Notes: generated from the sequence alone by a model not told the origin. Counted from the stretch's first letter, positions 18,724-28,650 are shown. The stretch: 57,198 nucleotides of DNA from Escherichia phage JLK-2012 (NC_049942.1); one strand, 5' to 3'. Numbers and translations are program-made.

Positions 18724-19263
18724 ATGGCTGTTCAAATTTCTGTCGAAAACCTTTCCCCTGTTACCTATAACCAGATCCCCGTAATTACTACTGAACTGTT
18801 GGCTCACCTTTACGGAACAAAAATCAAAAACATTTCTGATAACTTTCTGAACAACACGACGCGATTCATGCCCGGAAAGCATTACTTTAAAATTGAAAAA
18901 AACGAATTACGCGAGTTTAAGAACAGACCCGAAACAATCGGGTTAGTTGGTAAAAATGCCCGCTCCCTCATCCTCTGGACAGAACGCGGCGCAGCCCGTC
19001 ACGCAAAAATGCTCGAAACCGATCAGGCGTGGGATGTGTTCGAAAAACTGGAAGACTGCTATTTCAGCCAGTGCGAGAAAAATACTGGCAAACAAGAGAA
19101 GAAGCTCAACGGGCTTTCCGCAAAAGAAACAGACAGCCTTGTATGGCTGTGGGATTATGCCCACCGTCAGGTGGGTTTTTTATTTAGTAGTTCTCTCAAC
19201 TTTTCGTTCTGCTCTCTGAACTTTTCCTGTATTTCTTTTTGCATGGCGATAACCTGGGCTTGA
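18724..19263 (+). CDS. ORF6N-domain antirepressor-like protein, apparently chimeric/truncated at its 3' end
   Basis: N-terminal region [31 protein letters not shown]...; after the 74-bp repeat (19087-19160) the frame runs antisense through the mnt-like gene. Confidence 0.55.
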
Positions 19264-19487
19264 AGTTGAACTAGCGCATCAACATTTAGCGGAACCGAGA
19301 CGCTGTTAATTTTATCTGCTATTTCCCCGAGTGTATTTTCTGCATTCAAGGCATCTTCCAGTATCTGAACAATCTCTGAGTTCATAGAGCGCCCGTTTCG
19401 TTTGGCTCGTTCAGCTATAGCATCTCGCATTCCGTCAGGAAAACGGAGGTTGAACTTGTCGTAGTCTTTTACTTGTTTTTCGGCCAT
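19167..19487 (-). CDS. Mnt/Arc-family ribbon-helix-helix repressor (106 aa)
   Basis: [50 protein letters not shown]...; divergent from the arc-like gene. Confidence 0.6.
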
Positions 19488-19594
19488 TGCAAATCTCTCA
19501 AAAAAAATCATGGTGCCATATTGCCATACGATTTCAATAGTGGCATTATGGCCTTCATGGCGTCACTTTGGCACCAAATAAAGGAGATTAGATA

Positions 19595-19768
19595 ATGCAA
19601 GATACACTTTTCACTGAGCGCAAAAATATCAAACTCAACCTTCGCCTTCCATCACGGCTGAATGAAGACCTTCGCCGCCTGGCGGAAATGGACTGTATAT
19701 CTCTGAACTCTGCAATTGTTCGTTTGCTGGCAAAAGGTGTTAGGGAAGAGGTGGCGAATGGTCGCTAA
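19595..19768 (+). CDS. Arc-like ribbon-helix-helix repressor (57 aa)
   Basis: MQDTLFTERKNIKLNLRLPSRLNEDLRRLAEMDCISLNSAIVRLLAKGVREEVANGR; AAGGAG Shine-Dalgarno; immediately precedes the ant-like gene. Not in the supplied track. Confidence 0.6.
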   Translation: MQDTLFTERKNIKLNLRLPSRLNEDLRRLAEMDCISLNSAIVRLLAKGVREEVANGR

Positions 19769-20762
19769 AAACAGCGAAGCCTCAATGGCTGCAACCATTG
19801 AGGCTTCTAAATTACCAGTTAACCACGAGAAAACTGATATGACTAGTTTAGCAATTGCAGATCGCACAATCAATGTTCCATTCCACGGAACAAATCTCTT
19901 TTTGGTTGGAATTAACAATGAGCCTTATGTTCCTATGAAGCCTGTTGTTGAAGGTATGGGGATGGTTTGGGCTGCTCAATTTGTTAAGTTAAAACAGAGG
20001 TTTGTCAAAGGTATTTCGGAAATCGAAATACCTTCTGCTGGCGGTAAACAGTTAATGACATGTCTTGCCTTTCGTAAATTTGCGGCTTGGCTTTCAAGCA
20101 TTCAACCAAACAAAGTCCGCCCTGAAATCCGCGACAAGGTAATCCAGTATCAGGAAGAGTGTGACGATGTGCTCTACGAGTACTGGACTAAAGGCCATGT
20201 GATTAACCCGCGCAAAGCTAAAAAGGCATTGCCGGGGAAAATCACCACTGAACAGCAGGAAGCCATTAAACAACTCGTCATGAGTCGCGGTCAGTCTCTG
20301 CCAAAAGAAAAACAGACGAAGGCGATGATCACCATGTGGTCGTCACTGAAATCTCATTTTGGGTGTTCATACAAAGAAATCAGCGAGGAGCAGTTTACCG
20401 AAGCTCTGTCACTTGCTGCTCGCGTTCCGCTTGAAGGAGAGTTAATCGGCAAACAAGAGAAGAAGCTCAACGGGCTTTCCGCAAAAGAAACAGACAGCCT
20501 TGTATGGCTGTGGGATTATGCTAACCGCTCACAGGCATTATTCCGCGAATTGTATCCAGCGCTAAAGCAAATTCAATCGAACTATTCCGGCAGATGTTAC
20601 GACTACGGTCATGAGTTCTCGTATGTTATTGGAATGGCGAGAGACGTTTTAATCAATCACACACGAGATGTTGATATTAATGAGCCAGACGGACCAACGA
20701 ATCTTTCCGCATGGGTAAGGCTTAAGAACAAAGAATTACCTCCTTCACTACATCGCTACTGA
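19758..20762 (+). CDS. ant: Antirepressor (Ant-like)
   Basis: Follows the arc-like gene as in P22 immI; N-terminal domain (INVPFHGTNLFLVGINNEPYVPMKPVVEGMGMVW) resembles antirepressor N-terminal domains; start chosen at ATG with GAGGTG Shine-Dalgarno. Confidence 0.6.
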   Translation: MVAKNSEASMAATIEASKLPVNHEKTDMTSLAIADRTINVPFHGTNLFLVGINNEPYVPMKPVVEGMGMVWAAQFVKLKQRFVKGISEIEIPSAGGKQLMTCLAFRKFAAWLSSIQPNKVRPEIRDKVIQYQEECDDVLYEYWTKGHVINPRKAKKALPGKITTEQQEAIKQLVMSRGQSLPKEKQTKAMITMWSSLKSHFGCSYKEISEEQFTEALSLAARVPLEGELIGKQEKKLNGLSAKETDSLVWLWDYANRSQALFRELYPALKQIQSNYSGRCYDYGHEFSYVIGMARDVLINHTRDVDINEPDGPTNLSAWVRLKNKELPPSLHRY

Positions 20763-20780
20763 CAATTGACAACTTAACAA

Positions 20781-20806
20781 ACCCAGCTTCGGCTGGGTTT
20801 TTTATT
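20781..20806 (+). terminator. Rho-independent terminator after ant
   Basis: Hairpin CCCAGC-TTCG-GCTGGG followed by TTTTTTATT. Confidence 0.7.
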
Positions 20807-26625: not shown

Positions 26626-26774
26626 AAAGTGAGCCAGTCAAATGGAAGGTATCGTTAAACTCACCGGTAGTGTCAGTGGGTCGTCTGAGACGCCTGCATG
26701 AGTTATCAGAGCCATCAGTAGTTAACTGGTGGCTTTTTTATTGTTGTCAGCTTCCGGATAACGGGAGACGGGGT

Positions 26775-26990
26775 ATGTACCAGATGGAAAAAATCACAAC
26801 AGGTGTGTCATACACCACGTCAGCGGTGGGGACGGGATACTGGTTACTGCAGCTGCTGGACAAAGTCTCTCCGTCCCAGTGGGTGGCGATAGGTGTGCTG
26901 GGGAGTCTGCTGTTTGGCCTGCTGACGTATCTGACAAACCTTTATTTCAAGATTAAAGAAGATAAGCGTAAGGCTGCGAGAGGTGAATAA
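26775..26990 (+). CDS. S: Holin S (dual-start MYQM)
   Basis: 71 aa [71 protein letters not shown]; two TM helices; directly precedes endolysin. Confidence 0.85.
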
Positions 26991-27487
26991 TGTCGCCATC
27001 ATTACGCAAGGCTGTTGCTGCTGCTATTGGTGGTGGGGCTGTTGCCATAGCGTCTGTGCTCATCACTGGTCCGAGTGGTGACGATGGCCTGGAAGGTGTC
27101 AGCTACATACCATACGAAGATATCGTTGGCGTATGGACTGTATGTCACGGACACACCGGAAAAGACATCATTCCCGGTAAAACGTATACCGAAGCAGAAT
27201 GCAAAGCCCTCCTGAATAAAGACCTTTCCATGGTCGCCAGACAAATTAACCCGTACATCAAAGTCGATATACCGGAAACAACGCGCGGCGCTCTTTACTC
27301 GTTCGTTTACAACGTGGGCGCTGGTAATTTCAGAACATCGACGCTTCTTCGCAAAATAAACCAGGGTGATATCAAAGGCGCATGTGACCAGCTACGTCGC
27401 TGGACATACGCTGGCGGTAAGCAATGGAAAGGGCTGATGACCCGTCGTGATATTGAGCGTGAAGTCTGTTTGTGGGGGCAGCAATGA
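26990..27487 (+). CDS. R: Endolysin R (lysozyme with N-terminal signal-anchor-release domain)
   Basis: 165 aa; N-terminal Gly/Ala-rich SAR segment ([20 protein letters not shown]), lysozyme-like core. Confidence 0.85.
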
Positions 27488-27951
27488 GCAGGGTAACCGC
27501 GATTATCTCCGCTCTGGTTATTTGCATCATCCTCTGCCTGTCATGGGCTGTTAATCATTACCGTGATAACGCCATCGCCTACAAAGAGCAGCGCGACAAA
27601 AACGCCAGAGAGCTGAAGCAGGCGACCGCCACCATTACTGACATGCAGCAGCGCCAGCGTGCTGCTGATGCACTCGATGCTAAATACACGAAGGAGTTAG
27701 CCAATGCGAAAGCTGAAAATGATGCTCTTCGGCGTAAGCTTGATAATGGTGGTCGGGTGCTCGTCAAAGGAAAATGCCCTGTGCCAGCCTCAGCCAAAAC
27801 CTCCAGCTCCTCCGGCATGGGCAATGATGCCACCGTCGAACTCTCTTCAGTTGCTGGACGAAACGTTCTCGGTATCCGGGACGGAATTATCCGTGACCAA
27901 ACAGCACTGAGAACGCTTCAGGAGTACATCAGGACGCAATGCCTGAAATAA
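27484..27951 (+). CDS. Rz: Rz inner-membrane spanin
   Basis: N-terminal TM segment then coiled coil; ATGA overlap with R stop; contains Rz1 in the +1 frame. Confidence 0.85.
27704..27910 (+). CDS. Rz1: Rz1 outer-membrane lipoprotein spanin
   Basis: Embedded in Rz; lipobox MVVGC, proline-rich ([11 protein letters not shown]). Confidence 0.8.
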
Positions 27952-28152
27952 TTTTTTTGCAAATCACAAAGTCAATTTAATGAGCCTCGCGATGCGGGGT
28001 TTTTTGCAATAAATGCGTACCGCAACGCATGTTTTTTACACCGAACCTGCCCCTTTGGAATGGGCCTTTGAGGATACCAGTTAGTGCTGGCGAGCCTCGG
28101 TGGGCTGGTTTCCTGTGCGGCAAAGGTTCATTTCAAAGAGTAGGTACACGCT

Positions 28153-28650
28153 ATGAAATCATTAACCCTCTTCAATCAACCAATCCGTATCGGTGAAGAT
28201 GGCATGATCTGCCTCACTGATATGTGGAAAGCCAGTGGTAAAAGTGAATCTGAATCTCCGTACCACTACCTGCGAAACAAGCAGACCAAAGAGTTCTTGG
28301 CTGAGCTGGAGAAAAACCACGAATCTGTGGTTTTTACGGAACGCGGTGCGCACGGTGGAACTTATGGCGGAAAGTTCGTTGCTTATGATTACGCAGCATG
28401 GCTAAACCCCGGATTTAAATATGCAGCCTATAAAGTCCTCGATGATTACTTCACCGGAGAGCTTCATCATCGGAACAGCTTAAGTGCGCAGCTCAACATG
28501 AAATGTCATGAGTTTGATCAGAAAAAAGACATGGCGAGCTTCTGTGGACAAGGCCTCGCGGCATGGCGCTACACGAAACCTGGTTTGATCGCTGAAATTA
28601 ACTCCCTGGCTAACCAGTTGCAGATTTCGATCCCCGGGCTTCCGGGATGA
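28153..28650 (+). CDS. KilA-N-domain-like protein
   Basis: 165-aa ORF after the lysis cassette; N-terminal region resembles KilA-N DNA-binding domains (recalled). Confidence 0.45.
   Translation: MKSLTLFNQPIRIGEDGMICLTDMWKASGKSESESPYHYLRNKQTKEFLAELEKNHESVVFTERGAHGGTYGGKFVAYDYAAWLNPGFKYAAYKVLDDYFTGELHHRNSLSAQLNMKCHEFDQKKDMASFCGQGLAAWRYTKPGLIAEINSLANQLQISIPGLPG

Follow-up and report, generated by a model that had tools for sequence, protein, structure and literature searches.

A P22 immI-type cassette inside the nin-region ant gene of a lambdoid prophage of Escherichia coli O55:H7

The 57,198-nt sequence of Escherichia phage JLK-2012 (NC_049942.1), analyzed here over its whole length and referred to as the window, occurs at 100% identity at positions 1885391 to 1942588 of the E. 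coli O55:H7 strain DEC5E record (NZ_CP038383.1), as a lambdoid prophage inserted in mlrA (yehV). In this prophage, a 1361-bp cassette of the P22 immI type is inserted inside the ant (ORF6N) gene of the nin region and is flanked by an 80-nt direct repeat. A preliminary description of the window had counted four antirepressor-type genes and taken their number as a sign of cross-talk with co-resident prophages. We consider it probable that the four genes are the ordinary "Bro-network" set of a stx-less, defective 1717-type prophage; the cassette cut the nin-region ant gene, giving rise to a truncated ORF6N gene (ORF6N') and a chimeric Ant. The name refers to ten head and tail domains, including those found here, that form a domain-swapping network (PMC10111431); its proteins are modular, combining an N-terminal head (ORF6N, P22_AR_N, Rha, or KilA-N) with a C-terminal tail (P22_AR_C, KilAC, or ORF11CD3).

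Results

Junctions of the cassette with the ant gene

Phage Lahn2 and many Stx phages have an intact ORF6N-P22_AR_C gene with the Rha-KilAC gene and ninG behind it, and the flanks of the cassette match these phages at 94 to 99% in two pieces, with exactly the 1361 bp that separate the two repeat copies being skipped. Insertion aside, the Lahn2 flanks are 99.3% identical across ninE-ant-roi-ninG. Up to position 19166, where the native sequence ends, the ORF6N gene is identical to Lahn2 ant except for two substitutions, and it then continues for 33 codons antisense through the mnt-like gene. Compared with the ant genes of Phi24B, 933W, and Lahn2, the window gene is interrupted after codon 148, and most of P22_AR_C now lies in the chimeric Ant; the remnant in the ORF6N gene covers profile positions 2 to 29 of 73 and scores 21.4 bits (cut-off, 22.4), whereas the match in Lahn2 ant covers positions 2 to 73. 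The Prokaryotic Genome Annotation Pipeline (PGAP) of RefSeq lists 18724-19167 as a pseudogene.

At the left junction (junction motif, GTATGGNTNTGGGATTATGCCNACCNTCAGGTGGG), the native sequence ends with ...TGGGATTATGC and is followed by CCACCGTCAGGTGGGTTTTTT, the plus-strand terminator overlapping the mnt-like gene at its 3' end. The junction sits in a short microhomology, GGATTATGCY(M)ACCG, and the left end of the cassette (GGATTATGCCCACCG) matches 13 of 15 bases of the target (GGATTATGCTAACCG), which accounts for both the position of the left junction and the duplication of the block. At the other end, the ant sequence upstream of the right repeat copy is identical to that of the tail-site cassette of phage WGPS6 (15/15), whereas the sequence downstream is identical to the Lahn2 nin ant at 241 of 241 positions, compared with 216 of 241 for WGPS6. 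Because the flank matches switch across the right repeat, Ant is a chimera of a cassette-borne P22_AR_N head and a resident P22_AR_C tail; the right crossover falls inside the 80-nt block coding for the start of P22_AR_C, and the block was therefore duplicated. This block is identical (74/74) between genes that are otherwise 82 to 90% identical, and the two ant genes of phage 1717 differ in it (66/74).

The left end of the cassette (window positions 19152-19166; loci L004, 3998-4012, and L012, 2483-2497) carries GGATTATGCC(C)ACC, a 10- to 16-nt look-alike of the end of the 80-nt block that is also present in cassettes located between tail genes L and K. It may have been left over from an earlier ant context or may be the microhomology that guided insertion; as a relic, GGATTATGCC fits cassette movement in either direction between the tail site and the nin ant gene.

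Organization of the cassette

The cassette contains a terminator, an mnt-like gene, divergent promoters, an arc-like gene, a sar-like RNA, and the head of an ant gene (Table 1). The annotated P22 layout is mnt on the minus strand, overlapping Pant and Pmnt with Oarc and Omnt, arc, sar on the minus strand, ant, and a terminator; gene order and orientation, the ribbon-helix-helix type of the mnt-like and arc-like products, the spacer of about 70 nt with a putative antisense hairpin RNA, and the terminator after ant are the same in the window. The Mnt-like protein shares 50% identity with P22 Mnt over the ribbon-helix-helix domain but is longer (106 versus 83 amino acids [aa]), and the Pant-like and Pmnt-like sites are arranged face to face in the mnt-arc intergenic region. 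The Arc-like protein is only 30% identical to P22 Arc, so its operator specificity must differ from that of P22. The 70-nt arc-ant spacer contains a 14-bp hairpin followed by a T-run (folding energy, -32.3 kcal/mol; z, -7.2) and can be aligned with the sar terminator of P22, from which both hairpin arms differ. The terminator sequence at 19159-19184 is also found at the left end of the tail-site cassettes of WGPS6 and E. coli O145:H28.

When its start is placed at 19839, the alignment of Ant with P22 Ant begins at residue 1 of both proteins and shows 55% identity over 315 aligned columns (E value, 8e-117); the two are nearly identical in the C-terminal part that begins with the GKQEKK block. 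The start codon was assigned to 19839 because this ATG aligns with the ATG of P22 ant and because the spacer holds the putative sar-like antisense RNA. The differences from P22 lie in the location and the composition of the module: immI of P22 is in the late region, whereas the window cassette interrupts another ant gene, within the delayed-early nin region, its Ant takes the C-terminal domain from the resident gene, and its sar-like RNA stays below the Rfam threshold.

RNA leader of the ORF6N gene

Immediately before the ORF6N gene, c4-a1b1, isrK, and C4 were matched at the Rfam gathering level. Exact complements of the C4 loop heptamers, GUUUCGA and GUGCUAA, lie at 18525 and 18510 (a1, b1) and at 18706 and 18675 (a2, b2), and only 3 nt separate the end of a2 from the GAGG Shine-Dalgarno sequence of the ORF6N gene. 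This layout follows the logic of the immI regions of phages P1 and P7 (c4 antisense RNA-icd-ant), and the isrK-orf45-anrP locus of Gifsy-1 is laid out in the same way; the promoter-like site at 18449-18478 would then correspond to the isrK promoter or to the P1 immI promoter logic. Neither this leader nor the sar-like antisense RNA was noticed in the preliminary description.

The order isrK-C4-ORF6N gene is also present in Gifsy-1, Lahn2, and strain STEC346. In Gifsy-1, isrK and C4 precede STM2616 and isrJ follows it; STM2616 is an ORF6N-only protein of 187 aa whose ORF6N domain is matched by that of the window gene with 87% identity over 124 aa, and by position we equate it with the AnrP of Hershko-Shalev et al. 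(PMC4825925). In that study, translation of anrP rose about 140-fold when IsrK was supplied in trans, and AnrP increased the transcription of antQ. Gifsy-1 differs in that its gene lies downstream of Q, whereas the window gene is upstream of ninG and Q, and Gifsy-1 and P1 both differ in that the controlled gene of the window is truncated by the cassette; the window also has no isrJ. The intact E. coli version of the ORF6N gene is Phi24B "Ant", whose deletion reduces only the output of the late promoter after induction (pR'-lux activity after norfloxacin, about 27 to 56% of that of the wild type) and leaves superinfection immunity unchanged (PMC3064807).

Domain assignments and the antirepressor label

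Four open reading frames (ORFs) do lie where they had been reported, but the first of them is a truncated remnant. Pfam bears out the ORF6N type of this gene (E value, 1.6e-20) and the KilA-N type of the fourth (KilA-N, 7.4e-16; ORF11CD3, 2.1e-12). The gene behind the arc/mnt switch was correctly recognized as an Ant gene (P22_AR_N, 1.1e-39; P22_AR_C, 4.1e-27), although it starts at 19839 rather than 19758, and the "Rha/AntA-type" gene at 20831 contains Phage_pRha (5.9e-7) and ANT/KilAC (1.8e-32) domains, with AntA (PF08346) remaining undetected.

RefSeq already annotates the four genes with the same domain names, and PHROG labels the first three "anti-repressor", while the best named family for the KilA-N gene is "transcriptional regulator". 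"Antirepressor-type" is a family label, not a function. The relatives with tested induction or antirepressor effects are P22 Ant and Phi24B Ant/Gifsy-1 AnrP, and judged by homology to tested proteins, the label is justified for the two Ant-type genes only; we found no literature report of antirepressor activity for the third and fourth genes or their close homologues. Earlier publications or annotations already cover the gene families, their co-occurrence in Stx phages, and the idea of antirepressor cross-talk.

The third gene, located between ant and ninG, encodes a Rha-KilAC protein that is 81% identical over 241 aa to a 241-aa ORF of HK022, and its counterparts in Phi24B, 933W, and Lahn2 are named Roi. 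The HK022 RefSeq record has no roi annotation, and the ORF was taken from the ORF listing; its identification as Roi rests on PMC3430580 together with its size and position. PMC3430580 links Roi to lytic growth and cites Clerget & Boccard 1996, whose title reports that Roi inhibits lytic growth when IHF is mutant; antirepression is not what Roi is cited for. Just after Rz comes the fourth gene, which sits where P22 has rha, with the ORF11CD3 tail common to both. Phages 2851, 1717, and WGPS6 carry it with 100% identity, and it occurs in 388 of 5426 E. coli genomes (at least 80% coverage). No plus-strand consensus promoter was found upstream of this gene, and no functional report on it was found in the literature.

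Distribution of the gene set and of the junction

The four-gene set is standard in this lineage and not unusual; the unusual feature is the location of the cassette. Stx2 phage 1717 (Pankowvirus) has all four genes intact, namely, gp36 (ORF6N-P22_AR_C ant), gp37 (roi), gp49 (KilA-N), and gp70 (P22-type ant), and individual genes of the set are identical in phages 2851 and WGPS6. The three phages share the four Bro-network genes with the window, and the Q, ninG, and ninI modules match as well. However, gp70 of 1717 and its mnt/arc cassette lie between tail genes L and K, as does the cassette in these phages, and their nin ant gene is intact, whereas in the window the L/K site is empty and stx is missing.

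The cassette is present in 268 of 5426 E. coli genomes (at least 80% coverage), 99.8% identical in many of them, and was located at the tail L/K site where its context was examined (WGPS6 and 1717). The ORF6N-to-cassette junction, in contrast, was found in only 2 of the 5426 complete genomes, DEC5E and STEC346 (92.7% identity, all ORFs of the locus open), and in none of 50,697 phage records, no species-representative genome, and no JGI metagenome contig. Two IMG/VR contigs also carry it. One (L010) is 99.98% identical to the window; the other (L011; UViG 2681813225_000002, 1156-3303) has the same ORF6N' junction with a different cassette allele, encoding an 84-aa Mnt-like protein, a 60-aa Arc-like protein, an additional 67-aa Cys-rich ORF without a Pfam match, and an Ant in which a KilA-N head is joined to the same P22_AR_C tail. 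In E. coli O145:H28, this second allele occupies the tail L/K site, again with the left end unchanged. From these occurrences, the cassette family has two docking sites, L/K and nin ant, with at least two alleles at each. An assembly artefact is unlikely, because the junction recurs in an independent genome (STEC346) and on an IMG/VR contig. A second copy in DEC5E as a donor within the cell was considered and rejected, because the cassette is single-copy there; the L/K junction of this prophage itself carries none.

State of the prophage

Since the split parts of mlrA sit at the two ends of the window, both att junctions lie inside it. From the left, the gene order is int and xis; exo, bet, and gam; kil and cIII; an IS3-family insertion; N; a Ser/Thr kinase gene; cI and cro; cII, O, and P; the nin region; Q; three tRNA genes; a TerB-family gene; a nanS-p-like esterase gene; the lysis genes; and the head and tail genes. 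Intact copies of N, cI, cro, Q, and the lysis genes are kept. The prophage has no stx genes, including at the site after Q and the tRNA genes, where Stx phages would be expected to carry them. The prophage is defective and yields no infectious particles unaided, because PGAP flags a frameshift in the portal gene (35122-37706) and an internal stop in the tail-tip (J-like) gene (46543-50016); DUF551 fragments are also annotated.

Repressor and LexA sites

The repressor cI, the presumptive target of any antirepressor, has the domain composition of a cleavable lambda-type repressor. No exact LexA box (CTGT-N8-ACAG) occurs in the whole window. One-mismatch boxes number 26, which is within chance expectation (18.5 +/- 4.6), and none lies within 18449-21559 or near 28153; LexA control of the four genes was accordingly rejected. 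A fifth, small antirepressor of the Gifsy type beside the dinI-like gene at 56657-56905 was rejected as well, since only a 9-codon ORF follows there.

Trans-acting antirepressor cross-talk between prophages is established in Salmonella (Lemire et al. 2011, PMC3121763), and, according to PMC3064807, heterologous repressors such as lambda CI are reported to be inactivated by the Ant protein of P22. By analogy, the P22-type Ant of the window might plausibly act on co-resident lambdoid repressors. Only the Ant-type genes are plausible candidates for such cross-talk, and the number of genes is no argument for it.

Table 1. Coordinates of the ant locus, of the other Bro-network genes, and of reference features in the window (GA, Rfam gathering threshold; sRNA, small RNA)
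Feature	Position	Strand	Evidence or remark
Promoter-like site TTGACG-18-TATATT	18449-18478	+	10/12 consensus matches; before IsrK/C4 leader
c4-a1b1 target element	18472-18524	+	Rfam 50.6 bits, GA 46.7
IsrK sRNA	18485-18559	+	Rfam 76.6 bits, GA 50; overlaps c4-a1b1
Terminator-like site of IsrK	18539-18560	+
C4-type antisense RNA (orf45 region of Gifsy-1 isrK locus)	18586-18670	+	Rfam 75.1 bits, GA 45
b2 heptamer TTAGCAC	18675-18681	+	Exact complement of C4 loop
a2 heptamer TCGAAAC	18706-18712	+	Exact complement of C4 loop
ORF6N' gene, Phi24B-Ant/Gifsy-1-AnrP type, truncated	18724-19263	+	Pfam; PGAP pseudogene
80-nt direct repeat, left copy (5' edge of P22_AR_C coding block)	19087-19166	+	98% identical to right copy
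Intrinsic terminator, cassette left end	19159-19184	+	Overlaps last codons of mnt-like gene
Mnt-like ribbon-helix-helix repressor, 106 aa	19167-19487	-	Pfam Arc, E 1.8e-20
Divergent promoter/operator region	19488-19594		P22 Pant/Pmnt/Oarc/Omnt-like layout
Inverted repeats (candidate operators)	19511-19576
Pant-like site	19521-19549	+
Pmnt-like site	19574-19545	-
Arc-like repressor, 57 aa	19595-19768	+	Pfam Arc 22.1 bits, cut-off 20.4, E 1.4e-4
sar-like antisense RNA over arc-ant spacer and ant ribosome-binding site	19773-19839	-	Rfam, hairpin, fold
Ant, P22-type, chimeric, 307 aa	19839-20762	+	P22_AR_N and P22_AR_C
80-nt direct repeat, right copy	20448-20527	+	Holds right crossover
Intrinsic terminator after ant	20779-20806	+	Native terminator of nin-region ant gene
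Roi homologue, Rha N-terminal and KilAC/ANT C-terminal domains, 242 aa	20837-21559 (ORF from 20831)	+
KilA-N + ORF11CD3 gene, after Rz	28153-28650	+	Pfam
Conserved 85-aa ORF, after KilA-N gene	28647-28904
mlrA, 3' part	1-702
N antiterminator candidate, 933W-type, 127 aa	9984-10367	-	Arginine-rich N terminus; intact ORF
Prophage repressor cI	12994-13701	-	HTH_3 and Peptidase_S24
mlrA start codon and first 22 codons	57130-57198	-	Right end of window

Discussion

If the four genes are an ordinary Bro-network set altered by the insertion of the cassette, the locus might work as follows. In the lysogen, the Mnt-like protein would repress Pant, and C4/IsrK would limit the translation of ORF6N'. Upon SOS induction, RecA-mediated cleavage of the S24-type cI would lead to N-antiterminated transcription from PR, which would read through ORF6N' and the terminator, run antisense across mnt, and continue into arc-ant and roi. 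Ant would then bind residual cI and possibly heteroimmune repressors, acting as an enhancer of induction and not as its trigger, as was proposed for Phi24B Ant. Roi and the KilA-N/ORF11CD3 protein would be DNA-binding-type regulators of lytic development, not demonstrated antirepressors.

Several points weigh against this explanation. The protein functions and the regulation assigned to this prophage are predictions from sequence; the candidate operators consist of inverted repeats only, and the minus-strand Rfam match to sar reaches 29.5 bits (GA, 43; E value, 0.0033). The truncated ORF6N protein may remain active, by analogy with the ORF6N-only AnrP of Gifsy-1. The same junction is kept in three diverged contexts, which argues against simple decay, and because the prophage is defective, selection on these genes is uncertain.

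The view of the preliminary description, that all four genes are working antirepressors whose multiplicity serves to inactivate the repressors of several co-resident prophages, seems to us highly improbable. It can draw on the trans-acting cross-talk demonstrated in Salmonella, on the reported activity of P22 Ant on lambda CI, on the other lambdoid prophage copies of related sequences in DEC5E (three places in the record), and on the PHROG labels. These labels, however, are propagated family names; one gene is truncated, the third is Roi, and the fourth follows the lysis genes without a consensus promoter of its own. Moreover, the four-gene set is the normal complement of 1717-type Stx phages regardless of the co-resident prophages, and deletion of the Phi24B homologue of the ORF6N gene did not affect superinfection. 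The Gifsy and Fels-1 antirepressors GfoA, GfhA, GftA, and FsoA do provide a precedent for cross-talk, but they are small, unrelated proteins under the control of LexA or a repressor, and their targets are noncleavable repressors, whereas the cI of the window is of the S24 type and LexA boxes are absent near the four genes. We attach equally little probability to the opposite idea, in which the locus is inert debris of a decaying prophage and the cassette one more disruptive accident that left the genes inactive. The portal frameshift, the internal stop in the tail-tip gene, the IS3 insertion, the DUF551 fragments, and the truncated ORF6N gene are all in line with decay; against it stand the intact mnt-like, arc-like, ant, roi, and KilA-N ORFs, which are 99.8 to 100% identical to the copies of inducible Stx phages, the intact N, cI, cro, Q, and lysis genes, and the persistence of the junction, both in STEC346, with its ORFs open, and, combined with another allele of the cassette, on an IMG/VR contig.

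A different kind of explanation would make the insertion itself adaptive. Here, the cassette in ant would be a recurrent, selected hybrid immunity module that joins a P1/Gifsy-type RNA switch with a P22-type Ant controlled by Mnt, Arc, and sar; ORF6N' would be an AnrP-like effector, the Mnt/Arc/sar-Ant unit a second input, and the 80-nt block a site of head swapping. Gifsy-1 AnrP, which has the ORF6N domain only, is active when expressed (PMC4825925), and the junction occurs in three contexts with two alleles, one with a P22_AR_N head (DEC5E and STEC346) and one with a KilA-N head (L011), both of which occur at the tail L/K site as well and keep their left end there; the perfect conservation of the block between otherwise divergent genes points the same way. 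On the other hand, the arrangement is rare in the genomes and phage records surveyed, the tail of ORF6N' arises by antisense read-through and is under no constraint to be conserved in its own right, and the two ant genes of phage 1717 differ in the block. In addition, with the stop of ORF6N' located at 19261-19263, a transcript ending at the terminator (19159-19184) would contain no stop codon. We therefore regard a selected module of this kind as rather unlikely, both as an account of the insertion and as a general description of the locus. Were it correct, the 80-nt block and the 10- to 16-nt relic at the left end would be a portable recombination site by which immI cassettes move between L/K and nin ant, and Ant heads (P22_AR_N or KilA-N) could be grafted onto a resident C-terminal domain, a Bro-network swap with its scar intact.

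The analysis adds little new biology, since the gene families, their co-occurrence in Stx phages, and the concept of cross-talk were known beforehand. It does recommend caution in reading "antirepressor" on Bro-network proteins as anything but the name of a family. As a rare product of recombination, the chimera of cassette and ant gene has modest interest: a P22_AR_N head has been grafted onto a resident P22_AR_C tail, with the 80-nt duplication as the visible recombination scar, and two textbook antirepressor controls, P1 c4/IsrK and P22 Mnt/Arc/sar, stand back to back. The locus could interest studies of how Stx phages at the mlrA (yehV) site are induced in the O55:H7/O157:H7 lineage.

Additional features of the prophage

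Several further elements were observed outside the ant locus. At the N locus, PGAP lists only a 69-nt fragment, called "regulator" and marked as a pseudogene. The IS3-family element (8254-9467), in the early-left operon downstream of N, contains a programmed frameshift with an ALIL pseudoknot (Rfam, 120.9 bits), and a lambda cIII thermoregulator element lies at 7505-7563. A gene for a eukaryote-like Ser/Thr protein kinase (11023-12069, minus strand) adjoins cI, and the nin region of this kinase-bearing prophage encodes a NinI-type Ser/Thr phosphatase (22161-22832, plus strand). Downstream of Q, the genes for tRNAs of Asn, Thr, and Gly are followed by the TerB-family gene and a DUF3927 gene (region 23402-24634), and a match to the STnc100 sRNA (107 bits) lies after the DUF3927 gene and before the nanS-p-like esterase gene. 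At the right end (56657-56990, minus strand), a near-consensus promoter (TTGACA-17-TAAAAT) and a LexA box with one mismatch (56921-56936) belong to the DinI-like gene, which is probably under SOS control. Two cargo-like genes encode a small TonB_C-domain protein (29342-29668), between the KilA-N gene and the terminase gene, and a DUF1076 protein (52445-53020), after the tail fiber genes.

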